Assembly (NCBI GenBank): GCA_965261545.1
Contig: CBDHDF010000010.1
Location: 64,001-128,000 of the forward strand
From: Bdellovibrionales bacterium
GTDB taxonomy: Bacteria; Bdellovibrionota; Bdellovibrionia; Bdellovibrionales; UBA1609
Length of the DNA stretch: 64,000 nt
Reading direction: 5' to 3'
Within the stretch, counting starts at the first letter, position 1. Each line of letters opens with the position of its first letter. Positions 4,412-50,072 of this stretch are shown piece after piece. Below the pieces are notes generated by a model. It was given only the letters and a program-made list of their open reading frames with translations. It had not been told where the DNA came from and ran no database searches. Position numbers and translations under genes: made by a program.

Positions 4412-4422
4412 TGTGACCTCCT

Positions 4423-4457: not shown

Positions 4458-4475
4458 GATGTTTATATTAAATGC

Positions 4476-4787: not shown

Positions 4788-4807
4788 AATGAAACCTCCT
4801 TTCTAGT

Positions 4808-6278: not shown

Positions 6279-7458
6279 AGTTTAATACCTCCTGATAATC
6301 AATAAGACTGTTTTGAGCCTTTGAGACGTACTCGTCAAGAAGGCTCTTTTTGGGTTTCAATGATTTGGCCAATTCAAATTTTGTAAGATATTCCATAACG
6401 GGGATTCTCCCCACAACTCCCTTTTTGCACCTTTGGCATCCCTTGGAGTTTATTTGTCGGAAGTCTCCTTGTAAGTTGAGGTGAGCAAGGGCATGGATTT
6501 TTCTCACATCTTGGGAGGTCACTCTATTTGAACAAAAGGGACAAATTTTTTTCACAAGTCGTTGAGCCGCACAGAACCTCAAGTTGGATTCAAGCATGTA
6601 GGATTCAACTCCCATATTTCGTAGGCGTTCAATGACTTTCACCGCACTGTTGGCATGAAGGGTGGAAATCACAAGGTGCCCCGTGGCTGAGGCTTTAAAG
6701 CAAAGGTCTGCGGTTTCCCAATCTCGTATTTCACCAACAAAAATAATATCAGGGTCTTGACGGAGCACGGCTCTCAATCCATCGGCAAAAGACAGGGAGT
6801 CTTTAATTTCAATCTGGTTGATTCCTTGAAAGCTATATTCCACAGGGTCTTCCAGTGAGACGATGTTCTTTCGTTCTTTGTCAAGGGAGTTGAGGAGGCT
6901 GAAAAGTGTTCTTGTTTTTCCGCTTCCTGTGGGTCCAGAAACAAGAATCACTCCATTGGGCTCATTGGCTGAGTTGCTAAGGTCAAAAACCGCATCATCA
7001 CTGAGGTTGGATGACTCCAGGTTAAAATCTGTTGTCATATCAAGAAGGCGGAGAACAATCTTTTCCCCATACAGTGTGGGGGTGGAGTTGACTCTCAAGG
7101 CTAATTTCCATGAAGGAAGTGACAAACGGCTGTCTTGTGGTCTATTGCTGATAGCAATAGACAGGTTGCAAAGCCTTTTGGTCTCCTGAATGAAGCTTTG
7201 CCGATAATCTCTGCTGAGGGTCTTGTGAGTAAAGAGGTCACCATTGACTCTTATTCTTATGGCAAGCCCATTGGCATGGGGTTCAATATGAATATCGCTT
7301 GCAGATTGCTTTTGGGCATGTTGCAAGGTCTCTCGGAAAAGTGAGGTGTAAGGACCACAGTTGGCCATTTTTTCTTCACTGGTTTGTTTGTGTTCCATTG
7401 TAATTTGACTCATCTTATCTTCCCTGTTTTTTTCATTCTTTTCATTCTTTTGATTCAT
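6271..7458 (-). CDS. GspE/PilB-family secretion/pilus ATPase lacking the N-terminal domain
   Basis: ASDIHIEP, RPQD, GEKIVLRLL, Walker A GPTGSGKT, LEDPVE, LRQDPDIIFVGEIRD, TGHLVISTLH, AQRLV, Zn motif CPFC...CQRC, GRIPVME. Confidence 0.88.
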   Translation of the reverse strand: MNQKNEKNEKNREDKMSQITMEHKQTSEEKMANCGPYTSLFRETLQHAQKQSASDIHIEPHANGLAIRIRVNGDLFTHKTLSRDYRQSFIQETKRLCNLSIAISNRPQDSRLSLPSWKLALRVNSTPTLYGEKIVLRLLDMTTDFNLESSNLSDDAVFDLSNSANEPNGVILVSGPTGSGKTRTLFSLLNSLDKERKNIVSLEDPVEYSFQGINQIEIKDSLSFADGLRAVLRQDPDIIFVGEIRDWETADLCFKASATGHLVISTLHANSAVKVIERLRNMGVESYMLESNLRFCAAQRLVKKICPFCSNRVTSQDVRKIHALAHLNLQGDFRQINSKGCQRCKKGVVGRIPVMEYLTKFELAKSLKPKKSLLDEYVSKAQNSLIDYQEVLNCE

Positions 7459-7459
7459 C

Positions 7460-10400
7460 TTACTTTTTCAGTCCTTTTTCTAGTTCTTGGCAGGTGGGTT
7501 TCATGGCGGCAATAACTGCTTTTGAAATTGCAATATGGGCGATGTCACGAACGCAACTGACAGGTTTGTAGATCACAAATAAATATCCTGTTAAGCGACC
7601 TCCCATAAGACGTCCTATTTCTCTCACATTTTTAATGGTGTCGAGGAGGGCAATATTTTGTCCCTCACGAAAGCAAGAACTGGACCCTGGACTTATCATT
7701 TGCCAGGTTTCCCCAAAGCTTGAGGGTGTGGCCATAAAGACTTCTGATGAAATCGACTTCATCCGTGAAGCGATCATCAAGGCCCCGGTGAGAGTGGCAG
7801 GCCCGTTGTAGCTGCCCATTCTTGGGTAAAAAATTCCCCAACCATTGCAGGCAGAATGGCTGGAGGGCGGAAAGATGGGAAGCTGGGGAAGCTTCACGCT
7901 GCACATGGGAGAATCGGGGGCATAAGAAGCATCCGTCCCTCCTGTTGCCGAAGTCATGGCCCCTTTGATAAGGCAAGCTTTGGGAGAGAGCGACCAAGCA
8001 AGAAAATTCGGTTGGAAGCTGTCGCTGATCCCAGTGGACCAGTGCTTATGAATATGCTCGCTCATTCCATCAAAGCACAGCTTGGGAATCCGAATTCCAC
8101 CACAGGGAAGTATGCCAAATGGAATCTGAGCGAGGGGCACGGAGAGAGTTCTGGCATGATAGGATTGGGTGTCTTCATCGTTGGCCACTCCAAAGGGAGC
8201 AAGAGTTTTCACAGTGGACAACTGGAGGGCTGCGCCTGGGAGCTTGTGGAAATGTGAGTGACCTGCACGGGGTGAGACTTCAATAAAAGTTTGAGGGACA
8301 TTGTAGCTGAAGCGAGCACAAGGGCGTGGTGGGAAACCACACATTGTCATTGAGTATTTGAAGTTTAGGCAAGAGTTAAATTCCACAGTATTGACGATCG
8401 AGCAGATATTGGGGAAAGCTTGGGCCTTGTGAGTCAATGCCAGAGGAGTTATGAGAGTCACAAGGGTCAGGCATATGGTGAAAAGATGCATGGTATGTAG
8501 GGCTGGTGTGGCTGGGGCCAAATATGTGGCCAAAGTCAACCATGTGGTGGCGTTGGCCCGCCCGCCCAGCTTGGCATTGGACTTTTTAAAGCCCTCAACG
8601 AACTTTTTGAAAGAAGGCAGGAGAGGCTTTTTTTGAAGCCACTTAAGGACTTTTGTGTGCTTGGTGTTTTGCTTTTTGAGAAAATAGGGTTTTAAGAAAA
8701 GCTTATAGAAGTTAGTTTCTATGCCATCATACACTTGTACAAAGGCTTCAAAGGACTTGAGCCTTGAAAAGTCCTTTCCTGTGATGAGGAATTCCTTTTG
8801 TTGGCTGGTACTGATGGATTCGTTAATATTGGCATCCTTTGAGTCAAAGCCACCGAGAATGAAGTTTCGAGTGGTCCTTTGAGATTGCTCAGAAAGGCTC
8901 CGACTGGTTTTTTCCTGATCCTCTTGTCCCATCAACTCTTTAAAGTTACGAATGGTGTCAATGTCGGAAGAATGGCAAGCAATCCTTGTACGAAAGTTTT
9001 GGATCAGTTCCTTGGCTGCTGTCTCACTGCCAATGGCATTGTAAATGGAACTTAGGCTCTGGGAGGCTGCGAGAAAGAAGAAATTGGCCTCACGACCCTT
9101 GGCACATATTTTATCATCACCCATGGAGCCTCCATGGCCAACGGAGACGATATCTTGGTACTCATCAGCGATCAGGGCTGTCAGAATGTTTCTGGGGCGG
9201 CTGGTGTCTTTTAGGCGGTTTAATACAGACCTCTCATAGTGGAGCTTAATAAAAGTACCCATGGAGCGGCAAAGGGCCTCATGGTTTACATTGAAAAGAA
9301 GAACTTTTCCATTATCAACAATCTCATCCATGGATGGGATCGTGAGGTCTTCTTTTTTGGGACAGAAGATTTGAGCCGCCTTGTAGTTTTGGAATTGATT
9401 GAGAAATGTGGTGGAACTCACCAAAACGCCAGACCTGAACTTGTCTTCAAAGAGTGAGTATTCCTTGAAATATTGGAGGGCGCACTGGATGTTGTACCTT
9501 TCCTCCTCATCAAAGCGGCTCTTTTCCAAAGATGCTTTTAGGTTTTGCGTGACTTCTGTTGAGTCTGCGATGAGCATGGTTTTGTAGCAATCAAGCAAGG
9601 TGAAGTAATCAAATACGGCGGCACAGTAGACGATGACATTTTTTGTAAGGTTGAAAGCGGAGTCCTCCCAAATGGGTGACTCATTGGATTTGCCTGAAAA
9701 GTTCTTTGCCGCAGCCCGTATCATATTGGCAACTTCCAGATAGTTTGAATTTTTCAAGGTGTTGTCAATATAGACAGGGTTAAATGTTTGCATAGACTCC
9801 CCTACGGAACCATGGGGGTCTTTGATATCTCCAAGGTAAACGCACTGATCTACCAGGTCATGTTTTTGAAGTATTTTGGAAGCCTTTTCAATAAAACTGC
9901 CCTTGGGGTCGAGTATCAAGGCGGCTGGTTTGTGTGAAAATTGGGTAAAGAGTTGGTCGACATAGTTCAAGATGGTTCCTTGTGTTTTTCCAGTCCCTAT
10001 GGAACCTGTGACTAAAATATTTCCATTCAATGCTTTTTGGGGAATAGTGAGCCACTTCGGACGCTCCGTTTTGTCAAATGCGTCTGTCTCCTCTCCAATA
10101 GAGCCTAAAGTGAGGCCATCCCTAAAGCGTGATTTTCTGGGCAGTGTTTTATCGAGCTTAAGGAACCTTTGGGTTATTAATAAAATAGAAATTGATCCAT
10201 ACAAGACAATGCTTAAGGATAGTAAGAATGAGCCATTAAGAAATATGCTAAGATATTGAAGCATTCTCTGAGAAAAAATATCCCCATAGGATGAGAGGCT
10301 ATGTGTTGTATATAGCTCAAATGGCACCCAAAATAGGCCGGCCAACAGTAGGCAAAGCAGAGTCTTTGAAAAAACTTCTTTTCCATTCATTTTTTCCTTT

Positions 10401-10651
10401 TTGATGCTTCGCAAACGACTCCCTTGCTTCTTATAGCCCAAGACTCTTTCAAGGATGAGTGTCATCATCAGGGCATTGGCTGAGACAGAAGCCAAGCCTA
10501 TGAGGAGAAAGTCTTGTGTCTCACCAAAAGCCTTTTCAAGGTGAATCCAGTGCAACACAATGGACTCATAGTGACTCAGGCCAAAAAGTGTTAGGAGAAC
10601 AAGGGCGAGAAGACCAATGGCTGCCAGGGGAGAAATATCATCTTTTTTCAT
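7460..10651 (-). CDS. Type IV coupling protein (TraD/VirD4-like) fused to a C-terminal TraU-like domain
   Basis: About four N-terminal TMs, Walker A GSIGTGKT, ILDPKG, Walker B IADEYQ, KGRE, ASQSLSSI. Then a signal-like segment (AQA|FP at 8416) and a Cys-rich domain with GWGIFYPRMG, WQMISP, SCF and YLFVIYKPVSC. ATG 10651 overlaps the upstream stop (ATGA). Confidence 0.8.
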   Translation of the reverse strand: MKKDDISPLAAIGLLALVLLTLFGLSHYESIVLHWIHLEKAFGETQDFLLIGLASVSANALMMTLILERVLGYKKQGSRLRSIKKEKMNGKEVFSKTLLCLLLAGLFWVPFELYTTHSLSSYGDIFSQRMLQYLSIFLNGSFLLSLSIVLYGSISILLITQRFLKLDKTLPRKSRFRDGLTLGSIGEETDAFDKTERPKWLTIPQKALNGNILVTGSIGTGKTQGTILNYVDQLFTQFSHKPAALILDPKGSFIEKASKILQKHDLVDQCVYLGDIKDPHGSVGESMQTFNPVYIDNTLKNSNYLEVANMIRAAAKNFSGKSNESPIWEDSAFNLTKNVIVYCAAVFDYFTLLDCYKTMLIADSTEVTQNLKASLEKSRFDEEERYNIQCALQYFKEYSLFEDKFRSGVLVSSTTFLNQFQNYKAAQIFCPKKEDLTIPSMDEIVDNGKVLLFNVNHEALCRSMGTFIKLHYERSVLNRLKDTSRPRNILTALIADEYQDIVSVGHGGSMGDDKICAKGREANFFFLAASQSLSSIYNAIGSETAAKELIQNFRTRIACHSSDIDTIRNFKELMGQEDQEKTSRSLSEQSQRTTRNFILGGFDSKDANINESISTSQQKEFLITGKDFSRLKSFEAFVQVYDGIETNFYKLFLKPYFLKKQNTKHTKVLKWLQKKPLLPSFKKFVEGFKKSNAKLGGRANATTWLTLATYLAPATPALHTMHLFTICLTLVTLITPLALTHKAQAFPNICSIVNTVEFNSCLNFKYSMTMCGFPPRPCARFSYNVPQTFIEVSPRAGHSHFHKLPGAALQLSTVKTLAPFGVANDEDTQSYHARTLSVPLAQIPFGILPCGGIRIPKLCFDGMSEHIHKHWSTGISDSFQPNFLAWSLSPKACLIKGAMTSATGGTDASYAPDSPMCSVKLPQLPIFPPSSHSACNGWGIFYPRMGSYNGPATLTGALMIASRMKSISSEVFMATPSSFGETWQMISPGSSSCFREGQNIALLDTIKNVREIGRLMGGRLTGYLFVIYKPVSCVRDIAHIAISKAVIAAMKPTCQELEKGLKK

Positions 10652-10866
10652 TTGTGACCTCTTGTGTGAGACTTGTGAGATTGCATGTTCTTTGTAAAGC
10701 ATCGTTCTTTCAGGTTGAACTCAATATTGGCACAGTTCCCATCATGGACCTGAATCACAAAGCTCCCGTACTTCATAGGGAAGTGTGCTTTCTTGGACAC
10801 ATGTGCAATGAGCCTCTCAACGGCTTCTTTGATGATTATTTCGTCTTTCACATTTTCTAAATTCAT
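10648..10866 (-). CDS. Small protein, DUF2292/YezD-like
   Basis: MKYGSFVIQVHDGNCANIEFNLKER pattern; translationally coupled to the coupling protein. Confidence 0.45.
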   Translation of the reverse strand: MNLENVKDEIIIKEAVERLIAHVSKKAHFPMKYGSFVIQVHDGNCANIEFNLKERCFTKNMQSHKSHTRGHK

Positions 10867-11049: not shown

Positions 11050-11541
11050 CTAGAAACAAACTGCATGTTTCTCTCTTTCCCTCCTTGGCCTATCTTTCCT
11101 TGGCTTTGTGGAGGTCATGCGCTTTATCAGTATCATCCCTAAACTTTTTAGGGCTCGGTCCCTTATGCGAGACACAGCGTAGGCTGAAATTTCCAGTCTC
11201 TCACCTGTTTCTCGTAGATTCAGACCACCCAAGAAGAGAAAATTTAAAACCGCTCTTTGTTTAAAAGTGAGTTCTTTGGTGGCATCGAGCAAATATCTCT
11301 GGAGAACGAGTGACTCCTTTCCATCAAGTATAAAGCAGGTATCACCTGCCTCTTGGGGGTATTCCTCAATAAGAACTGGATCATCTAAGAGAACTTCCTC
11401 CTGGTTGACCTCAATGGTTTTTAGGTAATCCTCCCAAGTTGAGAGGCTCCAACTCTCACAGGATCTTTTGATTTCCTTTTCTGATTTCGGTGTTCTGTCG
11501 GGGCTCAACCATGGCGTTTTATTTTGCATTTTTCTTCTCAT
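11050..11541 (-). CDS. Sigma-70 region-4 HTH protein
   Basis: ELTFKQRAVLNFLFLGGLNLRETGERLEISAYAVSRIRDRALKSL; SD AAGGAGG; no recognisable region 2. Confidence 0.72.
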   Translation of the reverse strand: MRRKMQNKTPWLSPDRTPKSEKEIKRSCESWSLSTWEDYLKTIEVNQEEVLLDDPVLIEEYPQEAGDTCFILDGKESLVLQRYLLDATKELTFKQRAVLNFLFLGGLNLRETGERLEISAYAVSRIRDRALKSLGMILIKRMTSTKPRKDRPRREREKHAVCF

Positions 11542-12557
11542 TTTTCTTGCCTCCTTACTAATAGTGTTTTTTTCAACCGTTTCAACCGGGTGAATTGGGC
11601 CAAATTTTCATCAAAATTTCTGAAGATTTTTATTCATATTTTTGGATAAATTCTCTTAACGTCCTGTTTTTACTAAATATTTCTTCCAAAAAAATCTTAA
11701 AAAATTCTCAGGTTTTATTTCTTCTTTTTATTAAAAAAATATTTTTATATTTTTTTTATGAGATTATTTCTCTAATATTTATAATTTTCTTCTATGAGTA
11801 TTTAATTTTAAATTCCTTGAAACAAAGAATTTTTCCATGGCTAAGAGCACCTCCTTTCTGTAGTTCCAAACTTCCTTTTGAAGGAGTGACAAATTTTGTC
11901 CATTTTTTGTTTAACAGTGATTTCTTTGATGGCATCGAGAAATATCTCTGATCGGGCAACTCCCTGGCATCCAGTATGGATTTATGGAAGGCATCACTTG
12001 CCTCTTGGGAGTATTCCTCAATAAGAACTGGGTCATCTAAGAGAACTTCCTCTTGATTAATTTCAGTGGATTTTAGATAGTCTTCCCAATCTGAGGGACT
12101 CCAACTTTTACAGGACCTTGTGATTTCCTCTTCTGATTTCGGTGTCCCGTCTGGGTTCAACCATGGCGTTTTATTTTGCATTTTTCTTCTCATTTTTCTT
12201 ACCTCCTTACTAATAGTGTTTTTTTCAACCGTTTCAACCGGGTGAATTGGGCCAAATTTTCATCAAAATTTCTGAAGATTTTTATTCATATTTTTGGATA
12301 AATGTTATTAACGTCCTGTTTTTACTAAATATTTCTTCCAAAAAAATCTTAAAAAATTCTCAGGTTTTATTTCTTCTTTTTATTAAAAAAATATTTTTAT
12401 ATTTTTTTTATGAGATTATTTCTCTAATATTTATAATTTTCTCCTATGCGTATTTAAATTTTAAATTCCTTGAAACAAGGGATATTTCTATGATTAAAAG
12501 CACCTCCTTTCTGTATGTTCCAAACTTCCTTTTGAAGGAGTGACAAATTTTGTCCAT
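11257..12557. repeat. Tandem duplication with a ~650-bp unit (about 11257-11903 and 11904-12557)
   Basis: Near-identical AT-rich upstream blocks (11542-11790 vs 12194-12442) and gene 5' halves. Confidence 0.85.
11792..12193 (-). pseudogene. Truncated duplicate of the sigma region-4 gene
   Basis: N-terminus nearly identical (MRRKMQNKTPW...EEVLLDDPVLIEEY). Frameshifts near 11940 and is cut at the duplication junction (~11904) before the HTH. Confidence 0.7.
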
Positions 12558-12683
12558 CCTGTTTATCTTTAAATCTAAGAAGTCAGAACTCATTGATCTT
12601 TCTTCTTTCAAGAAGTGACAAATTTTGTCCATCCTATTTACCTTTAAATCTAAGAAGTCAGAACTCATTAATCTTTCTTCTCT
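12540..12683. repeat. 75-bp tandem repeat (2 copies) carrying the palindrome GACAAATTTTGTC
   Basis: Units start at 12540 and 12615; a third copy of the palindrome lies near 11888. Confidence 0.85.
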
Positions 12684-24476: not shown

Positions 24477-24647
24477 GCCTGCTCCAATATTATTGAACCT
24501 TATATTATATAATGTTCGATAATATATTACCTCAATTGGAAAAAGCAACGGATAATCTTTTCTAAGGTCATCTTTTTGGTGCTGGAAGTACTTCTATGCG
24601 TTTTGACACGACGTGTGATTTTCTGCCTATTTTAAGGAATTGTCAGT

Positions 24648-25022
24648 ATGAGTACATTGGATCAGAATGTTGAAAAGGTTTTACATGAATGGGCTGATAG
24701 AGTTGTTCCAAAGGATATGCCTATTCCTGAAATCAGAAGCTTTGCACAGAATGCAAAGCTAAATTTGGAAACACTGAAAAATGTTAGAAAAAGAAAGTCT
24801 TATCAGGCAGACACCATTGTTAGAGCTCTATTAGCCTCAGGTGTGGAATTAAAACCATTGCTTAATTTGCCAATAAATCCAAAGCTGAGTCTTTTGCCAA
24901 AAGAAAAAGAATGGATTCAGTATGGAAGGACTCTTAGTGAGAAGGAGAGGGTAGAGTTCATTGAACTTCTTAAGCACGTTAAAAAGATTATGAAGGACCG
25001 ATATAAAAAAGACCTAGATTAA
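24648..25022 (+). CDS. Putative XRE-like HTH regulator, copy 1
   Basis: IRSFAQNAKLNLETLKNVRKRK HTH-like segment; SD AAGGA; paralog downstream. Confidence 0.55.
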   Translation: MSTLDQNVEKVLHEWADRVVPKDMPIPEIRSFAQNAKLNLETLKNVRKRKSYQADTIVRALLASGVELKPLLNLPINPKLSLLPKEKEWIQYGRTLSEKERVEFIELLKHVKKIMKDRYKKDLD

Positions 25023-25313
25023 TTTCCTTTTTTAAGTATAACGACTCCTCTTCTTTCAACCGTAGAAAGAATTGTGTGAGATGATTTAATTTTTCTTCAA
25101 TTAAAAAACTATTCCTTACCTTACCCCGGAGGGGCTGCTTTTTCAGCTTCATATCTACGAACCTCATATAATATAAGGTCCGATAATATACTATGTCAAT
25201 TAGCAAAAGCAACGGATAATCTGACTGAAGATATATATTTTGGGATGAGGAACACCAGTTGCATTTCTTTGACACAAAGCATCCTTTCTTTCCTGTTTTA
25301 AGGAATCACCAAC

Positions 25314-25688
25314 ATGGACAAATTGAATCAGAGCGTTGAGAAGGTTTTGCATGAATGGGCTGATAAAGTCGTTCCAGAGAATATGCCTATTCCTGAAATC
25401 AAGAAACTTGCACAAAAATCAAAGTTAAACTGGGAAACACTGAGAAATGTTAGAAAAAGAAAGTCTTATAAGGCAGATACCATTGTTAGGGCTTTATTGG
25501 CCTCCGGAATAGACCTGAAGTCATTGCTCAATTTACCAATAAATCCAAAGCTGAGTCTTTTGCCAAAAGAAAAAGAATGGATCCAATATGGAAGAACTCT
25601 TAGTGAGAAGGAGAGGGCAGAGTTCATTGAGCTTCTTCAACATGTCAAAAGAATTATGAAGGACCGATATAAAAAAGACCCAGATTAA
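25314..25688 (+). CDS. Putative XRE-like HTH regulator, copy 2
   Basis: 102 of 124 residues identical to copy 1 by hand count; upstream region also duplicated. Confidence 0.55.
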   Translation: MDKLNQSVEKVLHEWADKVVPENMPIPEIKKLAQKSKLNWETLRNVRKRKSYKADTIVRALLASGIDLKSLLNLPINPKLSLLPKEKEWIQYGRTLSEKERAEFIELLQHVKRIMKDRYKKDPD

Positions 25689-34096: not shown

Positions 34097-35986
34097 CTAT
34101 TTATCTTCTTCTAAATTGCCCTTCCAATTTATGATTAGATCTATTGTTTTGTTATCAGGTGCATGTTTCTCTGGCTCCATCTTTGCAATATCAACAACAA
34201 CTGGCACCTGTGCTAATAGGCCAGCTAAAATACAAGTCCCAGTTGGCAATATTGGTAAGTAATCAAAGGAAACCCTATCAAGATATGAAATTGTCTTTCT
34301 TACTGCTTCAATATCTTTATCATTAATCAATCTATGCAAAAAATAATTGTGGAGTTGAGATATTATAGTTGCTGAAATATCCGCAGGGCGCTGACTTGAA
34401 ATTGTTAAGAAGACTCCAAATTTTCTTCCTTCCTTGATAATTTCCTCGAAAGTTTCTAATCTATAATCTTTCCATACTTCACTCTCCCTGTCAGATGAAT
34501 CAGAAAGAATATTATGAGCTTCATCAATAATAAAATTTAATAACTTTTCTTTTTTATTTTCTTTCTTTTGATCATCATATAATTGCTTGCATATCAAAAG
34601 AGGAAGAATTTTCTTCATATCAATATTAGTATTCTTCATAGAAATAACTGTAAAAAATGATTTTAGCCCATTATTATCATGGTCAATTGTAATTACCTTT
34701 TTAAGATCATTAATTCTTTTTTCAAGCCTCTTAATTAAAGGTGAAAGGTGTTCTTGATTGCTGTAGCCTTTTACAATATCACTATAATAATAATAAATTA
34801 TTTTAATATGTATCTTATCAAATTCATCTAAGTTCTTAAGTTTGTAGCCTTCTTCTTTAATTCCAAGTATGCATTTGATTTTATTTAAGAACACCTCCAA
34901 TGAATCTGCATATGTTTTATATTTATCTATCTCTATATAGTAGGAATTATGTTTTTTGTTAAGTTTTAAATGTTCTCTTAATTTATTAAGATGAATATTT
35001 TTATGTAAAAAATACTCCATTTCTTTTAAAAAATTAAAAATAATTCCTTTGTCAATATTTTTGTCTTCATTTGTCGTGATTTCTCTTATTATATCTTCAA
35101 TATCTGAATCATCAACATCTTTCTTTTCTAGAGTTCTCTTTAAAAATGGTGCTTGAGTTTTTTCTGTTGCTGTTAAAAAAACAGACCAGAACACGGAATC
35201 CCTTATGACGCCTATCTTAAGAGGAAATTTGCGATATTCTACTGGTTTATTTTTTGTAGATAAATTAAATCGTTCTGCATATATAATCTCATTATTATCC
35301 ATGCTTTTATTAGAAATGACTGCATTATCATTAATGTATTCTCCATTAAAATCAATAAGAATGAATTGAGAGTTATCTCTAAATTTTTCGTTATTTTTAT
35401 ACCTTTCAAATAATTCTCTATAGATTTTTGCAAGAGTATAAGATTTTCCACTACCAGTATTTCCAAATACTCCAATATGACTAGCAAATAAACTATTTAT
35501 ACCAACACTTATTGATTGACCTTCTTCAAAAGACAAGGATCCAATAGTTATTGGCTCATCCCCATCTTTTATAAACTTATGTATATTACTGAATTCATCT
35601 TTTTCTAAGAGAAAACATTCATTTCCGATTAATGGCAGTTCTTTGATGCCTCTCTCAAAACCTCTTGAACCAAAGAATCCTAAGAGACTAACATTCAAAA
35701 TACGATTTATCTTTTCTTTTTCATTTCTATATTCTTTTTTTGAAAATTTGTCTTCGTCGATATACTCACCCTCAATTTTTCCTATAATCTTTGTAAAACC
35801 CTTTAGAATTTTTACATAACCACCAACAGAGATATTTTTTAATAAACTATTCTTGTAAATAATATGAGATGTATTCTTACTCTTATCGACCTTAATATCT
35901 ATAAATCTTCCTTTGACAGAAATTACTTCTCCTATTTTAAAAATAGAATCCTTTAGGATAAAATTATTATTAATTTTATTTTCCAT
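34097..35986 (-). CDS. herA: HerA/DUF87 ATPase of a Sir2-HerA defence system
   Basis: HAS-barrel-like N-terminus, HIGVFGNTGSGKS, IIDEAHNIL, KEGRKFG, SSQRP; overlaps the SIR2 stop. Confidence 0.9.
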   Translation of the reverse strand: MENKINNNFILKDSIFKIGEVISVKGRFIDIKVDKSKNTSHIIYKNSLLKNISVGGYVKILKGFTKIIGKIEGEYIDEDKFSKKEYRNEKEKINRILNVSLLGFFGSRGFERGIKELPLIGNECFLLEKDEFSNIHKFIKDGDEPITIGSLSFEEGQSISVGINSLFASHIGVFGNTGSGKSYTLAKIYRELFERYKNNEKFRDNSQFILIDFNGEYINDNAVISNKSMDNNEIIYAERFNLSTKNKPVEYRKFPLKIGVIRDSVFWSVFLTATEKTQAPFLKRTLEKKDVDDSDIEDIIREITTNEDKNIDKGIIFNFLKEMEYFLHKNIHLNKLREHLKLNKKHNSYYIEIDKYKTYADSLEVFLNKIKCILGIKEEGYKLKNLDEFDKIHIKIIYYYYSDIVKGYSNQEHLSPLIKRLEKRINDLKKVITIDHDNNGLKSFFTVISMKNTNIDMKKILPLLICKQLYDDQKKENKKEKLLNFIIDEAHNILSDSSDRESEVWKDYRLETFEEIIKEGRKFGVFLTISSQRPADISATIISQLHNYFLHRLINDKDIEAVRKTISYLDRVSFDYLPILPTGTCILAGLLAQVPVVVDIAKMEPEKHAPDNKTIDLIINWKGNLEEDK

Positions 35987-37123
35987 TTTTTTTATTTATT
36001 TCATCCAATAATTTTCCAAATAGTTTATTTATATTTTTAAAATTATATTCTTTACAAGATTCTTCTTTTGAGTTATCTATTTCATTAGAAATGTATCGAA
36101 TATTTTCATTGTTCGGGTGAGATTTTTCTAATTCTTTACGTATACTTTTTTCAGATTCTTGATTATACGGAAGAATATAAATTCCAAGGGTTGGATTTGA
36201 GTTGGCAGCTCTTACAGTTACTTCCCTAATATGTTCATCAGAAAATGAAAATCCCATTACAAATAGTGCTGTATTCTCTTTCTCTAATTCACTTGAATAA
36301 ATTCTTAAAAGCTCGTAATAATTTTTATTCAAAACTGCTGTCTTAAATTTTTCTTCCGTAGGATTTATAATTAAAAGGTTTTCCTCATATTTGTTAATAA
36401 ATTTGTCGCATATCTTGTGTTTATTTCCATAATCTTTAAGATTATTTATCGATTCGAGATTTCGATCGAATAAAATATTTTCTTCATTCGATCCTTTCGT
36501 CCACGTTAATGATCCATGAAGTTTTATTAGATTAAAAACCGGAAGCTCGTAAGTATTATCATAATGTAAACTTTTTCTAAAAAAAGATCTATTGAAATTA
36601 CTCAATTTAAATAAACGCTCAAAACTTCCACTAAATCCATCGTTGTACTCCAAATTTATATCTTCCAATGATTTTTCAAAAAGATATCAAAATTTGTTGT
36701 AAATATATTTATTTGTTTACTTAAAATAGAATTTTTTCTGTTTAAAATAATAGTATTTATTTTTTTTAGAAACGTCTTGTAATTATCTAATATTTCTGAT
36801 GGATCTGATCTCTCGCTACCATCGTTCATTGCAGTGAATTCTCCAGAAGTCATTCCCTGAGAAGGAGATGTATTCTCTTTTTGACCGAATCGTAAGATCT
36901 CAATATTCTTACTTATTACTTTATCAAAAAAATCTTTGTAAATTTCATATTTTTTATGGCGATCTGGATTTTTTTCTTTTGAAAGTTCTTTTAATTCATT
37001 CTCTGTGTTCCCAAGTAATTGAAGAAAAGGAGTAGATAAGCCGGAACCAACTAGAAAATTGATGTTACAATCTTGAAAGATATATTCTAATTCACTGAAT
37101 AATGGTAGTTTATTATCTTTCAT
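35976..37123 (-). CDS. SIR2-like NADase, apparently frameshifted near 36680
   Basis: NFLVGSGLS, IFTTNFD, YNDGF, LIKLHGSLTW, FVMGFSFSDEHI. T5 to T6 in GATATCTTTTTGAA gives TTNFDIFFEKSLEDINLEYNDGF. Confidence 0.88.
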
Positions 37124-38126
37124 AATATTTCTTACTCATTTTTATACACTTAGATAAGATATCTAAACATAATAGGTAAATCTGAAATCTTAGATAGGAA
37201 TTACCTAGTTTCTATCGACGTTTATAAAAATAAACAGTAGTTTAAGTTTTTGTCACAAAGAAAACTAGACCAATGGGCAGAGATCAGGAAACGCAAATAT
37301 AATGGACCTATGAAAGTAAATCTTGGATACGAAGAGTACTCGCTACCCAACAAATGGATGGATCAAAACCCGCACGCTATCGAAACCATCGATGAGAAAG
37401 CTGAGAGGCGGCTTCCTAAAACAGGCATTTCCATTTCTGGAGCCGAAACCGGATGTAAGTCGCACCTACCTCACCTTTCTTATCTTCGCCCTTAGCTTGA
37501 TTTGGTTTTGCGAGCCGACAAGAAAGAAGTCTGTGGTAATGATGACAACAAGAAGCACGCTGACTGATTTGTTTGATTCCATAACCCCCAATGGGAGTAT
37601 TACAAAATCTCACTGCAAAGTCCGGAGGGCCTCTACTCTGTAAGCCTTGAGTCACCGATTTCATTTTAATGAGGCTCATACAAAGCAAAGCAGGCAACCC
37701 AGATCTTGTTATAAACTCCATCCATCTTGTTACAAAATCCCGCTGTAACAAGGGGCCTCCACTCCGTGAGTCATGAGCACAGGATGAGTTGCCGGCCTCG
37801 ATTCATACGGCCCGAGAGGCCCATCCATTTCACTTCAATGAGCCCCACCACCGGGGTTGAGTCGAGACAGATAATCCAAATTTTGCCCACCCCTCCGGCA
37901 AATCTTGTTACAAAATTTCTACTGTAACAAGGGGCCGTCACTCCCCCAAACAGCAAAATGGTAACAAAACCTTGGTTATTTTGAGGTTGGTTGCACGTCA
38001 TCTCTGCGTAGGTTTGAGTTGAGGGGAGGAAGAAATTCTGCCATTTTACGGGAGGGTGGCCCTTCAAAGTTAAGTGATTATAGGGCCTTGATTCTCTTAA
38101 CTTGCCTTGTTGGAGGCATCTCGGCG

Positions 38127-38162
38127 CACTAGGTACTCAGGATTTTAAGTCCTGCGTGTCTA
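38127..38162 (-). pseudogene. tRNA-Leu(UAA) fragment
   Basis: Minus strand TAGACACG-CAGGA-CTTAAAA-TCCTG-AGTACCTAGTG: 3' side of the D-arm, a perfect anticodon arm (TAA) and the start of the variable arm; no acceptor or T arm. Confidence 0.7.
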
Positions 38163-38550
38163 AAGACAAATTTCTCCAACAGATGAAAGGTTAATTTTGA
38201 TAACATTTTGTAATCATTAACCTTTGAAAGACGAAGCTCTCCACTAAGTCCATGAAAATTCAGCAAATACGGCCCTTTCTTACTTCAAGCCAACGTCAAG
38301 AAAACCTTGAAGATACGTCCAACTGACCTAGGCGTTTGTTGCGTATGTGTTGCGGAATAAGGGCAAAAATCTTGTTGCGGTCGAGAACGCAACAAGATTT
38401 ATATCAATAATGAATTCCATCGCGGCAGGCTTTTAATTAACCGCACGCGTCATTTAAGTGTTTGAAATTATTGAATATTTAGCCTATGAACTTATAATAG
38501 AGTTTTAAGGATTGACTTTTTCCAACAAGTAGCCGATATATATTAAGTAA

Positions 38551-38612
38551 CATCCCTACTTGGTTCGCTGGGTAGGTGCGAGGCGGCTGAAGGGCCGCTT
38601 TCGTTTCTTTTT
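38551..38612 (+). ncRNA. Candidate small structured RNA/terminated leader upstream of the NYN nuclease
   Basis: Hairpin 38555-38576 (9 bp, gUUCGc tetraloop, 3 G-U pairs), hairpin 38580-38601 (9 bp) and a U-rich tail; TTGACT at 38512. Confidence 0.55.
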
Positions 38613-38625
38613 AAGGCTCAAAAAA

Positions 38626-39258
38626 TTGAAAACAAATGTTTACATAGACGGATTTAACCTCTACTACCGTTGTTTAAGGTGGACACCTTATAAATGGCTT
38701 AATATAAAAGAACTACTAGATATAGTGCTTACAAAGTCCCATAATATTATTAAAATAAAATACTTTACAGCTCCTGTAAAGTCTTCTTCCAATGATAAAT
38801 CCAAGCCAGAGAGGCAAGCGACATACTGGCGAGCCCTTGATTCTATTCCAAATTTAGAAATTGTAAAAGGTAAATTTAAAAAAAGACAGGTTAAGGGACG
38901 TCTTCTTCAATCAACAGTAAAAGAGCTTCAAAAAGGAAGTATTGTAAGTGTTGAGAAATATGAGGAAAAAGAATCCGATGTTAATATAGCTTCTCATATT
39001 CTTTTTGATTGTTGTAAAGCAGATTTAGATTCCATCATTCTTTTGTCAAATGACACAGATCTAAAAACTCCTTTGCATTTTGCGCGGAAGAATTTTAAAA
39101 AGAAGGTAGGTATTATCTCTCCGACAAAAGAAAAAAATGAAATACATCAGGACCTAAAAAAAGTATCACATTTCTCCGTCAATATTACAGATGAATTGTT
39201 AAAACAATGTCAATTTTCTGCAGTTGTTAATAAGATTAGAAAACCAGTATCTTGGTAA
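38626..39258 (+). CDS. NYN/LabA (DUF88) PIN-fold nuclease
   Basis: VYIDGFNLYY, YKWL, KYFTAP, EEKESDVNIA, LLSNDTDL with acidic catalytic residues intact; likely TTG start at 38626 (SD TAAGG). Confidence 0.88.
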   Translation: MKTNVYIDGFNLYYRCLRWTPYKWLNIKELLDIVLTKSHNIIKIKYFTAPVKSSSNDKSKPERQATYWRALDSIPNLEIVKGKFKKRQVKGRLLQSTVKELQKGSIVSVEKYEEKESDVNIASHILFDCCKADLDSIILLSNDTDLKTPLHFARKNFKKKVGIISPTKEKNEIHQDLKKVSHFSVNITDELLKQCQFSAVVNKIRKPVSW

Positions 39259-39517
39259 TAATGGCGGGGGGAACAGTCCTTTCTTACTTCAAACCAACTC
39301 AAGAAAGCCTTGAAGATACATCCAACTGACCTAGGCGTTTGTTGCATATGTGTTGCGGAATCAAGGGCAAAAGTCTTGTCGCGACCGAGAACGCAACAAG
39401 ATTTACTCGCTATGTTCCAGCTTCCTGTAAGTTACATTTCCTAGATTCGTGAAATCCAGTCAGGGGTTTGGATGAGGTTGGTCACAGGCGGCAGCATGCT
39501 GCCAAAGCCCCTTAGCA

Positions 39518-40126
39518 TTAGGGTTGAGCAAATAAATGAGGGCATTGAGATTTAAGTGATTCGTAACCTGCTACTATTTGGTTGGTTGCAGAATCCTCCG
39601 CCAAGTTTTGGCAGCAAGGATTTGTAGCAATTATTTCCAAGTCTGAAGACCCTTCTTTGGACATAGTTGGATTGAGGAATATAAACCAATAATAACATAT
39701 GTTCATTGCCTTAGTGGTTTTTTCAAACACTAATGTGTAGTTCCTGATTGTAGTTATGATACGGTTTGCACACTCTTCCCTACTAAATTCACAAGTGTCA
39801 TTATGGTCCTTATCAGCATGTTTGAAAAAATTTTGTGTTTTATTTAGATATTTAAAAACTTCTTTTTGGTCTTCTTTTTTGAAACGCATACTCAACTCCT
39901 CATTCCATGAGGAGTGAACATTGCTCGGAGCTTTCGATCGCTCAAGTTGCCGATTTAAAATTTCTGTGCGATTATTCTTGTATATCCCTTCAAGAATACC
40001 ATAAGCGGCACCGGACAGTGTGTGTGCAGAAATCAAACTTTGATTCTCAAAAAATAGCTTGATCGCTGTCTCCAACTGCTGTGTCGCAGCTTCTTGTTTG
40101 GTCACTTTCATACTTTCTTCGATCAT
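39518..40126 (-). CDS. HEPN-like hypothetical protein
   Basis: KQEAATQQLETAIKLFF...SAHTLSGAA...NKTQNFFKHADKD, a degenerate Rx4H motif (QNFFKH). Confidence 0.5.
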   Translation of the reverse strand: MIEESMKVTKQEAATQQLETAIKLFFENQSLISAHTLSGAAYGILEGIYKNNRTEILNRQLERSKAPSNVHSSWNEELSMRFKKEDQKEVFKYLNKTQNFFKHADKDHNDTCEFSREECANRIITTIRNYTLVFEKTTKAMNICYYWFIFLNPTMSKEGSSDLEIIATNPCCQNLAEDSATNQIVAGYESLKSQCPHLFAQP

Positions 40127-40200
40127 CGTCTTACTTCTCCTTTAAACCTCTTATAATAGAAAAGAGTATTCTTGGCAAATCCCGAGTTTGACAGCAGCAT

Positions 40201-41691
40201 CGTATTGGGTCATAAGTAAACGACACCAAGGAGCGGTTTGTCATTTTGCTCATCTTATGCCACCTCCTTGATATTTTCCTGTCGTACTAATTTGAAAAAC
40301 TCTTTAAGTTTTAGTTCAAGTCCCCTCTTTAGCTCAAAGGGGTTGAGTTCAGCTTTACGCCTCCTCAGTGCTTCATCCTCCTCATGGTTTAATACCCCAC
40401 TTTCAATAACTCTCTGATAGGGAGTCTTAGGGGTGCCATACTTTTTCTTGATTCTGGCTCCCACTCGTACCTTTTCCTGAAGTTTAAATGTGGGGAGAAA
40501 GAAGTTCTGGAGGGGACTCCAGTGGTTTTTATAAATGTCATTCATTAAAGGAACTAGCCTTGGATCTTCAAACCTCTCATAGCCAAACAATTCTCTGACG
40601 TGGGTGAAGTTTTTTTGCTCAATGTAGCAGTTGTCATTCTTTTTGTAGGGGCGAGAACGAGTGAACTTGATGTTAGATAATTGGGTGAATTGAAGGACAG
40701 GCTTGTTTAAGAACTCACTTCCTGAGTCTGAGTTCATGGCCAGTAGTTTAAAAGGTATAGCTTGGTTAATGTTGTTGATTTGCCTTCTCACCTCCGTCCC
40801 TTTCTTGGTAAACATAGCCCGACACTCTGTCCATGTGGTGTTAATGTCGGTCACTGTAAGAGAGCTGATAAAAGGGCCTTGGGCACTCGTTCCACAGTGA
40901 GCAACCGTATCTGTTTGTATATAACCAGGCCTTGTGACCTTGGAGTCCAGTGTATTGATGGGAACCTTATTTTTCATATATTGGGCAGGACAGGTTGTGG
41001 ACAATCCCTTAGAGACCACTGAAGCCAAGCGAATTTCCTTCAGATAACGCTTCAAGGTGCTGGCACTCATTTTTTCTAACTGAAGCTTTAAGTGGGGAGG
41101 ACACGACTCATAATTGGGGAGCCAATCCGGTAGAGCGGCTTTTATTCGTACAGCCGAGATTTTTTCCATTTGTTCCCACAAATATTTGATGTGGGGTCGT
41201 AACTCCTCTTGAGAATAAGCCAGAGGCCTCCCTGACCGCTTGAGTGGCACAGAGCCATTATTTTGTTGAATCTCGTTTAATCTCCTTATGAGTCGCTTCC
41301 TAGAGAGGTTTGTGACCAGTTCCGCATGATCTAGCAACTCCCCTTTTTTAGCCTTAGAACTTTGTTGATATAAGCCTGAAATTGCAGTTAAGTAAGCATT
41401 AACAGCCGACTCCCTCACTGAAGACCCCCTCGTTGATTGTTTGTTTCCAAAGATCAATCTTACTGAGAGGATCAACAGAGGGGTAGCTCGGCTGATCTGT
41501 TTTAGAAGGCGTAACAACCGGTGTCTTATTGAGTGAGGGAGTCTCCTCAACGCACATTTTTGACTCAAAAAGAGAAAAGTGGGAACTCGGTGTCGGAATA
41601 ATGAGCCAGCCAGGTGGAGGACCATAACCCGGGCACCACGAAGGTGTTTTAATGTGATGCGTCTTGGTGTCGTTATTTTTGACCCAATTCG
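40201..41691 (-). mobile_element. rve/DDE (ISNCY-like) insertion sequence
   Basis: Imperfect TIRs CGTATTGGGTCATAAGTAAACGACACC and GGTGTCGTTATTTTTGACCCAATTCG; GCAT duplicated at 40197-40200 and 41692-41695. Confidence 0.82.
40255..41418 (-). CDS. Integrase-core (rve) DDE transposase
   Basis: PGYIQTDTVAHCG, NSDSGSEFLN, RSRPYKKNDNCYIEQKN, KTPYQR; likely GTG start at 41418. Confidence 0.85.
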   Translation of the reverse strand: MRESAVNAYLTAISGLYQQSSKAKKGELLDHAELVTNLSRKRLIRRLNEIQQNNGSVPLKRSGRPLAYSQEELRPHIKYLWEQMEKISAVRIKAALPDWLPNYESCPPHLKLQLEKMSASTLKRYLKEIRLASVVSKGLSTTCPAQYMKNKVPINTLDSKVTRPGYIQTDTVAHCGTSAQGPFISSLTVTDINTTWTECRAMFTKKGTEVRRQINNINQAIPFKLLAMNSDSGSEFLNKPVLQFTQLSNIKFTRSRPYKKNDNCYIEQKNFTHVRELFGYERFEDPRLVPLMNDIYKNHWSPLQNFFLPTFKLQEKVRVGARIKKKYGTPKTPYQRVIESGVLNHEEDEALRRRKAELNPFELKRGLELKLKEFFKLVRQENIKEVA

Positions 41692-41855
41692 GCATCTGCG
41701 TTAAAATGCGAAATTTCCAGAAATTGGGGTTGTACTGAAATATAATGGTAGCTGCTGGAAAAATTAAAATTGACGTAAAAAAAGTGTAGAAAACAAAATA
41801 GGATTTTATCGTTTTAAATATTGATATATCATAGAAATATGTAGAAAATATCCTC

Positions 41856-43517
41856 ATGTACATCCAAACGACTAAAAACTCAAAAGGTCAGTGCTACTAC
41901 CACCTTGTGGAGTCCTACAGAGAAAAAGGCAAATCCAAAAAACGCATGCTCATGTCCTTAGGTAAGGCTGGAGAAGGAGGAGAGGATAAGATTAATAGTT
42001 TGGCGCAGGCCGTATCCCGCCACCGAGAGCTTCTCACTGTGAGTCAATTGGCTAAGGAGCTTTACATCGAAGAGACTTTCATTTTGGGTCCCTTGCTGAT
42101 TTTACAAAAGTTGTTTGATCAACTGGGTATCAATAAGACCCTCAAAGACATAAAAGATTCTCATGAGAAAGTTCAATTTGATTTATGTAAGGTGATTTTT
42201 ACCTTAGTTGCCACCCGATTTATTGCTCCTAGTTCCAAGTTAAAGGTTTTTGAGTATTGGCAAAAATCTTTTTACCCAGACATGATTAAGGGTGATTTGA
42301 GTCTCCAGCATATTTATCGGTCTATGGACTTACTTGCCTCCCATAAGGATGAAATAGAGAACTCGCTTTATTGGGTGGGGCGAGATTTATTTAATTTCCA
42401 AGTAGACATTGTGTTGTATGATTTAACAACCTTACGCTTCGAGAGTACAAGAACAGACTTAGGGAAACTTCGTCAATTTGGCTATAGTAAAGAGAGACGA
42501 TCAGACTGCACCCAAGTTGTCTTTGGTTTGTTGGTGAATCGGGATGGCATCCCTTTAGGTTTTGAGGTTTTCCCTGGTAATACTTTTGAAGGCAAGACGC
42601 TTTCAGATATTGTTGATAAAATGAGAAAAAAGTTTAATGTACGCCGTTTCATTTTTGTGCCTGATAGGGGGCTTTTATCAAAGGCTAATACTGACAAACT
42701 CAGTGAGGATCAAAGCGAGTTTATTGTTGGTATGAAGCTTGGATCTTTAAAAAAAGAAAAGAAACAAGAGGTCTATGATTTAAATCGTTTTAGCTGGGTA
42801 TATGAGAATGAGCTTGCTGTTTACGAAACAGACCATGGGGGGCATAGATGTATTGTGACTTGGTCTAGGAAAAGAGCAGAGAGAGATAAAAAATCTAGAG
42901 AATCCCTTCTTGAAAAGATCGAAGGAAAACTATCTTCTAAAGGTGTTCAGTCTAGTACTTTTGTTTCCAATAAAGGTTATAAGAAATATGTAAAGATGGC
43001 TGACGACAAAAATAAAAAACCTGAATTAAATGCAGAACAAATAGAATTAGATGAAAAAATTGATGGTTTTTTTGCCGTCCTTACAAATGTCAAAGACTTG
43101 ACGGCAGATGAGATTATTATCAACTACAAAGAATTGTGGAAAATTGAAGATGCTTTTGGTGAGTTAAAAGGGACTTTGAAAACACGTCCTGTTTTCCATT
43201 GGACAGACCAGAGGATTATTGGACATTTAACTCTATGCTTTTTAACTTATCTTTGTGAGGCCCACCTTACAAAATGTTTAAGAGATAAGAAGATGAACCT
43301 AAAAAGCCCAGCCATAGGCATTGGTCATGTTAAAGAGCGACCTTTAACTGTTGTAGAGGCCATGAGGGAACTCAAGGAAGTTAGGGCTATCCCTGTTAAA
43401 ATTCGTGATCAAGTCATTTGGACCCGCACAAATATCACTGGCAATGCCAACTCCTTATTTAAAGCCGCAGGCGTCCCCATCCCTCCCAGAATCCTTAATG
43501 CCCACAAGTGTGGATAA
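41856..43517 (+). CDS. IS1634-family DDE transposase
   Basis: YHLVESYRE, LYDLTTLRFE, GYSKERRSD, DRGL, YKELWKIEDAFGELK, RPVFHW. Confidence 0.92.
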   Translation: MYIQTTKNSKGQCYYHLVESYREKGKSKKRMLMSLGKAGEGGEDKINSLAQAVSRHRELLTVSQLAKELYIEETFILGPLLILQKLFDQLGINKTLKDIKDSHEKVQFDLCKVIFTLVATRFIAPSSKLKVFEYWQKSFYPDMIKGDLSLQHIYRSMDLLASHKDEIENSLYWVGRDLFNFQVDIVLYDLTTLRFESTRTDLGKLRQFGYSKERRSDCTQVVFGLLVNRDGIPLGFEVFPGNTFEGKTLSDIVDKMRKKFNVRRFIFVPDRGLLSKANTDKLSEDQSEFIVGMKLGSLKKEKKQEVYDLNRFSWVYENELAVYETDHGGHRCIVTWSRKRAERDKKSRESLLEKIEGKLSSKGVQSSTFVSNKGYKKYVKMADDKNKKPELNAEQIELDEKIDGFFAVLTNVKDLTADEIIINYKELWKIEDAFGELKGTLKTRPVFHWTDQRIIGHLTLCFLTYLCEAHLTKCLRDKKMNLKSPAIGIGHVKERPLTVVEAMRELKEVRAIPVKIRDQVIWTRTNITGNANSLFKAAGVPIPPRILNAHKCG

Positions 43518-48905: not shown

Positions 48906-50072
48906 TCAAGACGGCTTTTGGGTGTGTCTCGAAGCAAGAGAGACCACATTTTCACCTACATCTTGTTGAGGTAAGCCGTAACTGATCCTTTCCGTAACCC
49001 CTTGCACATTGATGCCAGCCAACCTCAAATACTCATCCGTTGTAGACATCCTGCGATGACCAACAACAGCCATCACTTGCACCAAAGGAGCGCCCTGACT
49101 CAACATGTTAGTGATAAAGGTTGCCCTCAAGTCATGAAAACGAATGGAAGTGATATCAATGGCCCGGCAAAACTCCCTGAGAACTTGAGCCTGCTCACCA
49201 TGCTCCCATTCCTTCATCCTAGGAAGCAGAAAATCCTTAATCATCACTTGCTTCTTTAAGCGGCTGTCCCATAGCTCTTGAGAATAGCTCTCCTTCCTTG
49301 CCTTGCACTCCTGAAGAAACCCTCTTAAGTCACCATTGATGGGAATGGTTCGATTCTCACGATTCTTAGGTGGAGCAATTCCGTCTTTATTTGTCCACTG
49401 CTTGTTGACTGAAATAAAGCCAGATTCAAGGTCCACATCTTGCCAACGAAGGGCAAACATTTCGCCAGACCTCATACCCGTCATGAGAGCAAAAACCCAC
49501 ACCTTATAAAAGCGGTGATTGCACTTAAAAGCCTCTTCCAAAAGAAAATGAGCTTCTTTAGAATTCAGCACTTCTTGCTGAGTCTGAGGGGCTCTAATTC
49601 GAATGCCTAGGGCTGGATTTCTAACAATGATTCCATCCTCTAAAGCCATCTGCAAGATTCGATTTATCATCTTTAAAATATGCTTTTGAGAATAAGGCGA
49701 AACTCTATCACCAATGTGATTAAATATAAGATTATGGATGTTTTGAGGTTTCACTTTTTCAAGAGGTAGCTCCACAAACTCTCTGGGGAGCCACTTTCTC
49801 AATCCTCCATCGTAACTCTTTATAGTCGATATCTTGAAGGAAAGCTTCATGCGCTGAAGGCATTCCTCATGCCAATCGCCCCATGTCCAGTAGATACGAC
49901 CACCACCAAAGCGTTGATAAAGTTCATTTCTTAATTGAAACTCAAGCTCTTTAGCTTTTCTTTCTGAAGTGACACCACGCTTTTTTCGGAAATGTTGCTT
50001 TTTCCGACAATCCCTTAGATGAACAACCACTTCATAAAGTTTTTTGCCATTTTTACAATAAGATTTAATCAT
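48906..50072 (-). CDS. Tyrosine integrase
   Basis: TGMRSGE (R), PPKN (K), FHDLR (HxxR), VGH, TTDEY (Y). Confidence 0.95.
   Translation of the reverse strand: MIKSYCKNGKKLYEVVVHLRDCRKKQHFRKKRGVTSERKAKELEFQLRNELYQRFGGGRIYWTWGDWHEECLQRMKLSFKISTIKSYDGGLRKWLPREFVELPLEKVKPQNIHNLIFNHIGDRVSPYSQKHILKMINRILQMALEDGIIVRNPALGIRIRAPQTQQEVLNSKEAHFLLEEAFKCNHRFYKVWVFALMTGMRSGEMFALRWQDVDLESGFISVNKQWTNKDGIAPPKNRENRTIPINGDLRGFLQECKARKESYSQELWDSRLKKQVMIKDFLLPRMKEWEHGEQAQVLREFCRAIDITSIRFHDLRATFITNMLSQGAPLVQVMAVVGHRRMSTTDEYLRLAGINVQGVTERISYGLPQQDVGENVVSLASRHTQKPS

Follow-up and report, generated by a model that had tools for sequence, protein, structure and literature searches.

A covarying structured RNA accompanies HEC-09-type NYN nucleases and is a candidate antitoxin for a predicted PIN-fold RNase

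In type III toxin-antitoxin systems (ToxIN, CptIN and TenpIN), as at the locus described here, a promoter, an RNA, a terminator and an endoribonuclease gene follow one another on mobile DNA, and the likeness extends to some members in which the terminator is preceded by units in tandem (PMC5086642). AbiF systems, with their abiF-motif RNA, share the succession of a promoter, a short hairpin RNA, a Rho-independent terminator and read-through into an RNase gene; in the RCd22-AbiFCd pair of C. difficile the hairpin motifs can be duplicated, the RNA works in trans as well as in cis, and partial termination by RCd22 lowers toxin-gene expression (PMC12373285). AbiF has been established by experiment, whereas the NYN system considered below is a prediction from sequence. 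On the protein side, the closest described entity is HEC-09 (Hma-embedded candidate 09), which shares with our locus the NYN protein family as defined by the PADLOC HMM, a MARF1-like NYN fold and conserved aspartates, but was published as a single-gene candidate (bioRxiv 10.1101/2024.01.29.577857). The terms 'ncRNA' and 'non-coding' are absent from the main text of that preprint, in which one HEC-09 representative, cloned together with its native promoter region downstream of an inducible promoter, failed to protect against any of a panel of coliphages (bioRxiv 10.1101/2024.01.29.577857).

Two further groups of PIN-domain proteins are relevant to this comparison. NYN.COG1432/LabA-like PIN domains are listed as of unknown function, and the LabA homolog nicB of P. 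putida S16 is credited with metabolic activity (PMC5499597). PhoH2, also a PIN-domain protein, is accompanied 5' or 3' by lineage-specific structured RNAs, but is a PIN_4-PhoH helicase fusion whose worked example carries a 357-nt multistem RNA (bioRxiv 10.64898/2026.10.21.760802). The text of that 2026 genomic-language-model preprint contains no toxin-antitoxin proposal and no mention of 'NYN' (bioRxiv 10.64898/2026.10.21.760802), and its database could list NYN-RNA clusters. Our full-text literature searches, which covered titles and abstract openings of openly accessible papers, returned no description of an NYN-associated RNA antitoxin; within six of the eight supplementary files of PMC8040213, five rows name NYN within 5 kb, none of them clearly the HEC-09-type family.

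The locus lies in a window of 64,000 nt (the whole stretch analysed) from a Bdellovibrionales genome, and its features, all on the + strand, are as follows:

38471..38498, +: second sigma70-like promoter candidate, farther upstream (TTGAAT-16-TATAAT, 10/12; consensus match only)
38512..38540, +: sigma70-type promoter predicted for the small RNA (-35 TTGACT at 38512-38517, 17-nt spacer, -10 GATATA at 38535-38540)
38539..38544, +: alternative -10 for the small-RNA promoter, TATATT
38549..38554, +: unpaired 5' leader (A)ACAUC, with transcription predicted to start near 38549-38550
38555..38576, +: hairpin P1, 9 bp with a UUCG loop and three G-U pairs; both-side changes in 5/9 pairs
38578..38612, +: hairpin P2, with an outer GCGA/UCGU helix, a bulge and an inner GC-rich stem, followed by a U tail; a predicted intrinsic terminator
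38626..39258, +: gene for a predicted ribonuclease of NYN/LabA-like type (PIN fold), 210 aa from a TTG start; PADLOC family HEC-09

The element itself, about 64 nt long, thus comprises an A/C-rich leader, a UUCG hairpin, a bulged terminator hairpin and a U tail. The initial annotation had placed at this locus a TTGACT at 38512 with an imperfect -10, a 9-bp UUCG hairpin with three G-U pairs at 38555-38576, a second GC-rich hairpin with a U-rich tail, and an intact NYN gene behind them, and re-examination bore out all of these elements. The -10 is indeed imperfect, reading GATATA where homologs have GATACT, GATAAT or GATATT; Bdellovibrionota homologs show equal spacing and a TTGAC(T/A)...GATA(C/A/T)T motif. 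The TTGACT site was absent from the list of a generic promoter scan, which returned the candidate at 38471-38498. Inspection of P1 revealed that its UUCG loop is closed by a G-C pair rather than the canonical C-G, and the second hairpin, which the terminator call placed at 38580-38601, is represented more accurately by a bulged helix spanning 38578-38604 with the U tail at 38605-38612. A 232-aa ORF from a TTG at 38560 was rejected, as it runs across the RNA and homologs do not conserve the additional N-terminal part. Folding of positions 38550-38612 (63 nt) gave z = -2.93, with 2 of 200 shuffles as good, and longer cuts of the region gave -1.5 and -1.9, so that single-sequence folding goes only moderately beyond chance; it is comparative evidence that settles the reality of the RNA element. 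Rfam returned no meaningful match in window positions 36000-42000 (one chance mir-241) and tRNAs only in 17 homolog loci, and the abiF motif (RF03085) had no match in the same interval at E<=5, nor in the 17 homolog loci at gathering score.

The downstream protein matches PF01936 (E 2.6e-9) and the PADLOC HEC-09 model PDLC04163 (E 3.7e-37, residues 4-203), a model that two homologs also match. Matches were confined to NYN in Pfam, HEC-09 in PADLOC and NYN folds in the PDB; there was no NCBIfam model for the protein and no match to an Abi_2 (PF07751-type) protein, a PDB sequence search gave only a weak 2QIP match (E 0.03), and ESM Atlas yielded NYN clusters only. The AlphaFold prediction (pLDDT 90) matches the fold of 2QIP (VPA0982; E 1.4e-8) and the NYN domain of MARF1, as in NYN.COG1432/LabA-like proteins. 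Five acidic residues, D8, E114, D118, D143 and D145, are intact in the window protein; the latter four occur in all 150 aligned homologs, and D8 in 149, the exception being one mis-anchored row. The PIN-type active site is intact, and RNase activity is predicted from the fold together with these residues. The protein is basic, with a pI of 9.6 set beside family medians of 9.2-9.4. Its family numbers 1,021 representatives at E<=1e-30, with 449 plasmid records and three occurrences in cultured phages, and includes plasmid homologs annotated as HspA as well as copies that are nearly the sole cargo of 3.5-5 kb plasmids. The closest homologs of the window copy come from Bdellovibrionota MAGs, and its distribution there is patchy (5/41 relatives and 7/301 genomes of the phylum).

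Having defined the element in the window, we determined how widely it accompanies the nuclease. From 183 homolog loci (80 genomic, 80 metagenomic and 23 viral) we dropped duplicates, matches starting after residue 15 and loci with less than 120 nt upstream, which left 152 distinct regions, the window included. A descriptor consisting of a short leader, two hairpins and a U-rich tail on either strand, at -0.40 kcal/mol per nt or below, passed 131 of these regions as against 20 of 240 upstream regions of other genes; addition of the leader pattern A-Y-N(1-2)-H-C before the first hairpin gave 119/152 and 3/240, respectively, with the caveat that both descriptor and pattern were composed after most of these sequences had been viewed and that related loci are not independent. 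After manual curation an equivalent unit was present at 150 of the 152 loci, across protein identities of 23-60%; identity to the window copy falls to 23%, and the named hosts represent eight phylum-level lineages. By the descriptor, the unit was absent from all of a set of 30 PF01936 genes of other kinds from this phylum, in contrast to the HEC-09-type genes. The descriptor also passed 10 of 10 further homolog loci, including all seven previously unseen ones (from four genomes, with four loci from one genome). Among nine plasmid loci, six passed in the upstream-sense position at a looser cut-off (-0.33); L210 and L212 held arrays by eye, and L216 had two hairpins without a U tail. These observations show that the RNA unit is near-obligate to, and specific for, this NYN subfamily. 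One control upstream region contained a leader-hairpin-terminator unit resembling the NYN RNA before a different gene.

We next asked of the alignments whether the helices are conserved as structure. The initial annotation had proposed conserved covariation upstream of homologs as a check on its model, and such structure exists, so the model stands on this point. In 21 Bdellovibrionota elements, 11 of 18 pairs show changes on both sides, a level attained by 0/500 shuffles and by no slid control, although kinship inflates some measures and the MAFFT alignment was partly out of register. In 27 elements of a distant clade in which the RNA lies on the opposite strand to the gene (hereafter the divergent clade), 10 of 16 pairs show such changes, again with 0/500 shuffles as high. 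G-U exceeded A-C cells by 56:1 in the Bdellovibrionota elements, which identifies the + strand as the structured strand in window-type elements, and by 28:6 in the divergent clade. Applied to the MAFFT alignment, RNAalifold recovered no more than 12 pairs, since stems that differ in length were not in register. Covariance models scarcely cross lineages: R1 found the Bdellovibrionota elements strongly, together with one divergent element at 13 bits, and R2, built from the divergent clade, left the window RNA undetected and gave nine full-length off-clade matches, of which six were sense elements (E 0.2-4.6). Common ancestry of all units is accordingly deduced from architecture and gene linkage. 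R1 matches below 27 bits were rejected on inspection as mostly ordinary terminators; out of about 1000 candidates in each genome, its genome-wide searches scored no more than 35-150, and they missed known loci.

The weak cross-lineage scores, and the passing of control upstream regions noted above, would suit an explanation in which a loose descriptor collects unrelated ordinary terminators and hairpins, with real conservation confined to close Bdellovibrionota relatives. That explanation is, however, extremely unlikely given the contrast between the 152 NYN regions and the 30 other NYN genes, the outcome at the seven unseen loci and the independent covariation in two distant clades. We conclude that HEC-09-type NYN nucleases are paired with a real family of structured RNAs that has not been described before.

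The position of the RNA relative to the gene proved to be variable. A raw scan of the 152 loci scored 94 as sense, 48 as divergent and 10 as none, and relabelling of seven rows by eye gave 97 sense, 48 divergent, six none and one deleted; L191, first scored as none, was mis-anchored and is in fact sense. In the final tally, 98 loci, including the window, have promoter, RNA and terminator followed by the NYN gene, 49 have the unit upstream and inverted, three have it downstream and two are damaged. Forty-eight of the inverted loci, from Actinomycetota, Bacteroidota and one gammaproteobacterium, form a single clade (SH-aLRT 99 in a quick IQ-TREE analysis that excluded L030 and L119 as short ORFs) and were therefore counted as one inversion event. 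The forty-ninth, L112, is an independent inversion, its unit being nearly identical to those of sense-oriented sisters with the promoter-like site flipped as well, which brings the inversions to two in all. Of the downstream units, those of L031 and L032 are convergent with the gene and have promoters TTGACT-16-TAACAT and TTGACT-16-TAAAAT, and that of L033 is in sense orientation; these three cases are weakened by a chance rate of 14 in 132 downstream regions passing the descriptor; all three fail the leader pattern, and L031 scores only -0.34.

Several features of promoter organisation accompany these layouts. A NANNNT hexamer lies 4-9 nt before the leader in 37 of 41 divergent-clade units (a raw count with no control set). 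In divergent loci such as L047 (3950-4000) and L056, the distance between the -10 box of the RNA and the NYN start is 30-45 nt, and on the opposite strand this box also resembles a -10, though a weaker one, a symmetry that is partly inherent to -10 boxes; one bidirectional promoter might provide strong RNA and weak NYN transcription in these loci. Long perfect inverted repeats, MITE-like with arms of 25-35 bp, adjoin the RNA promoter or lie between promoter and RNA (L112, at about 170-260; L210, L212 and L218, upstream of the promoter).

These layouts bear on whether the element is simply a cis-acting leader, which would restrict NYN expression as an attenuator or a site of autoregulation and have no function as free RNA. 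The 98 sense-upstream loci, with a terminator before the start codon, are what such a leader would look like, and partial termination surely lowers NYN expression in that arrangement, as reported for AbiF RCd22 (PMC12373285). A pure attenuator nevertheless cannot explain the 52 loci in which the unit is not upstream on the same strand (49 on the opposite strand, as marked by G-U pairs, and three downstream), nor the flipped unit of L112 beside its sense sisters, and P1, the leader and tandem arrays are all unneeded for termination. We thus regard a leader-only role as improbable; the freedom of position argues instead for an RNA that acts in trans.

Our favored reading is that the unit is a type III- or AbiF-like RNA antitoxin that binds and silences a predicted PIN-fold NYN RNase, and the sequence evidence makes this probable. 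In the sense layout, the promoter would make mostly the short, terminated RNA, with read-through giving a little NYN mRNA, so that the RNA stays in excess; where the unit is inverted or downstream, it would be transcribed from its own promoter. The basic NYN protein may bind the unpaired A/C-rich leader and the hairpin or hairpins, thereby blocking its active site, and arrays would supply several binding units per transcript. Should RNA transcription stop, through loss of the plasmid or island or through shut-off by a phage, the RNA would decay and the freed nuclease would cut cellular RNA and arrest growth. The output could be stabilisation of the element or of the defence operon that houses it, or defence against phages beyond the panel used for HEC-09. 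The RNA-antitoxin part of the original proposal thus gains from a conserved, covarying, subfamily-specific, position-independent and sometimes arrayed RNA, all as that model predicts, whereas its suggestion of abortive infection sits poorly with the lack of phage protection by the published HEC-09 representative. Membership in a known class does not follow. AbiF toxins are Abi_2 proteins linked to ancestral Cas13 (PMC12373285) rather than of PIN/NYN fold, and the RNA paired with NYN, unlike that of AbiF, can also be inverted or downstream. Type III toxins differ in family and fold, about a third of the NYN loci are not bicistronic, and the tandem-repeat antitoxin typical of type III is replaced in the window, and at most loci, by a single unit. 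Searches for pseudoknots (crude, canonical pairs only) gave no signal, with at least four leader-loop pairs in 6 of 130 units and at least four loop-loop pairs in 4 of 130. Since the layout matches type III and AbiF systems, yet the fold differs, no pseudoknot signal appears and mostly one unit is present, the module likely works in a similar way to these systems without being a member of either.

Arrays of two to four units are a minority feature (L210-L212, L218 and L186-L189), occurring on E. coli and Klebsiella plasmids and in viral contigs, and they precede the terminator in L211 (33-nt period), in L212/L218 and in L186/L188. On the E. coli plasmid CP057929.1, four leader-hairpin units with a 33-nt period stand before the terminator and NYN gene; arrays in Klebsiella and E. 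albertii plasmids and in viral contigs L186-L189 are built of units of about 50 nt. A near-identical array hairpin is seen in an E. coli plasmid (L211:290-310) and a viral contig (L186:1630-1650) that encode distant proteins. We entertain, as a possibility that we hold to be somewhat doubtful, a broader scheme in which the HEC-09-type NYN family is run by its own dedicated ncRNA antitoxin, with the RNA gene on either strand or side, and in which the RNA has expanded on plasmids and viruses into short leader-hairpin arrays, to be processed into single units by the nuclease. Such a history would run parallel to, and independently of, the path that has been proposed to lead from AbiF toxin-antitoxin systems to array-based RNA-targeting immunity.

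To identify which partner persists when the module decays, we compared damaged loci. In the three cases where the RNA is deleted or interrupted by an IS (L030/L207, L034 and L084, the last with an IS inside the RNA unit), the NYN gene is broken too, and none of the 152 loci was seen to combine an intact NYN with a damaged or missing RNA. The reverse, an intact RNA before a dead or absent NYN, occurs in L193, L027, L205, L209, L204, L021 (twice), L028, L119, L238 and L239, and the window genome has three further promoter-RNA copies, all of them followed by a truncated NYN. Orphan RNAs that retain their promoters occur in genomes G151 (94% complete, with no NYN match) and G162, in neither of which an intact NYN was found. 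In L021 (535-718), two orphan promoter-RNA units stand face to face, and just a few NYN-like codons remain between them. The asymmetry of decay runs the way that a toxic protein partner would predict, in three cases only and with the provisos that a gene is the bigger mutation target and that MAG frameshifts are possibly assembly errors.

The same asymmetry enters the comparison with a non-toxic ribonucleoprotein, in which the RNA would be a cofactor, scaffold or dedicated substrate and the complex regulatory or sensing. Such a complex would account equally well for obligate linkage, positional freedom and arrays; it would fit a HEC-09 without phage protection (bioRxiv 10.1101/2024.01.29.577857) and has a parallel in the PIN family PhoH2, with its flanking lineage-specific ncRNAs of unknown function (bioRxiv 10.64898/2026.10.21.760802). 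We consider it unlikely, although a serious contender, as the frequent loss of NYN from beside an intact RNA has no counterpart in the other direction, and carriage as near-sole cargo on 3.5-5 kb plasmids, together with use of a slot otherwise taken by toxin-antitoxin genes (see below), fits addiction better. The orphan RNAs with intact promoters in G151 and G162 speak, in turn, against a reversed polarity in which the RNA is the toxin and is destroyed by NYN.

Two copies of a direct repeat, to which we assign no strand, flank the cassette in the window at a distance of 1003 bp from each other:

38095/38142..38401: genome repeat, first copy; found elsewhere in the genome and ending in a 13-bp hairpin
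39278..39414: genome repeat, second, partial copy

Other copies lie in G000 at C2:78840-79097, C2:8108-8362, C2:97634-97821, C10:22752-23009 and C11:762920-763118. Two of these sister copies adjoin a tyrosine integrase and a tRNA-Leu-like fragment, an association from which we infer that the repeat is the att-proximal end of a tRNA-Leu-type integrative element; it is context rather than a part of the RNA-NYN module. The cargo slot beside sister copies holds a RelE/ParE toxin with a small HTH partner, or AbiEi. Elsewhere in the window, positions 24400-47900 are dense in transposase-like genes and IS ends, tandem duplications of ~650-670 bp occur at 11337-12680 and 24495-25567, and a TraD/TrwB-type coupling protein (7460-10702) and an integrase (48906-50072) are encoded.

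Beside the cassette, at 34097-37123 on the - strand, is a Sir2-HerA defence pair. A frameshift near 36660 divides its Sir2 into two ORFs, so that the pair is broken, or mis-assembled, here. The initial annotation had tied the RNA-NYN module to this pair, a link we rejected: the Sir2 is frameshifted, and 0 of 71 flanking genes scanned at 36 homolog loci (71 of the 134 listed), where neighbors vary, gave a Sir2 or HerA match. The NYN copy lies beside the broken pair, not within it. PADLOC matches at E<=1e-30 were obtained for 16 of these 71 genes, a raw count without background in which some matches are probably spurious; they include Zorya, type I RM, Dnd, Hma and Cas8b, and would place NYN homologs inside or next to operons of the Hma, type I RM, Dnd and cas kinds. 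In two Neolewinella loci (L035 and L037, about 2800-7500), a divergent RNA-NYN module has a WYL regulator on one side and, on the other, the cas8b-cas7 genes of a type I-B operon, a placement that suggests a role in safeguarding CRISPR-Cas.

CreTA occupies this position, directly before cas8b, and CreT is an RNA that acts as a toxin. The Neolewinella placement is thereby a point in favor of reversed polarity, and divergent RNAs could also overlap a long NYN leader, as expected of an antisense to NYN mRNA (type I). We judge either arrangement very improbable: apart from the persistence of orphan RNAs, the longest perfect antisense match of the window RNA to its NYN mRNA region covers only 8 nt, which belong to the U tail, and sense-upstream and downstream-sense RNAs cannot be cis-antisense.

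If the RNA-antitoxin reading is correct, the PIN/NYN fold would join the short list of toxins under RNA-antitoxin control, and a large family annotated as 'NYN domain-containing protein', 'HspA' or 'HEC-09' would acquire both a function and a hidden partner. The module is smaller than 800 bp and has members on E. coli plasmids, which makes it readily testable, and the natural single-unit, array, inverted and downstream variants allow effects in cis and in trans to be separated. HEC-09 proteins, which are found inside defence operons and of which the one published representative gave no protection alone, may then serve to stabilise those operons.
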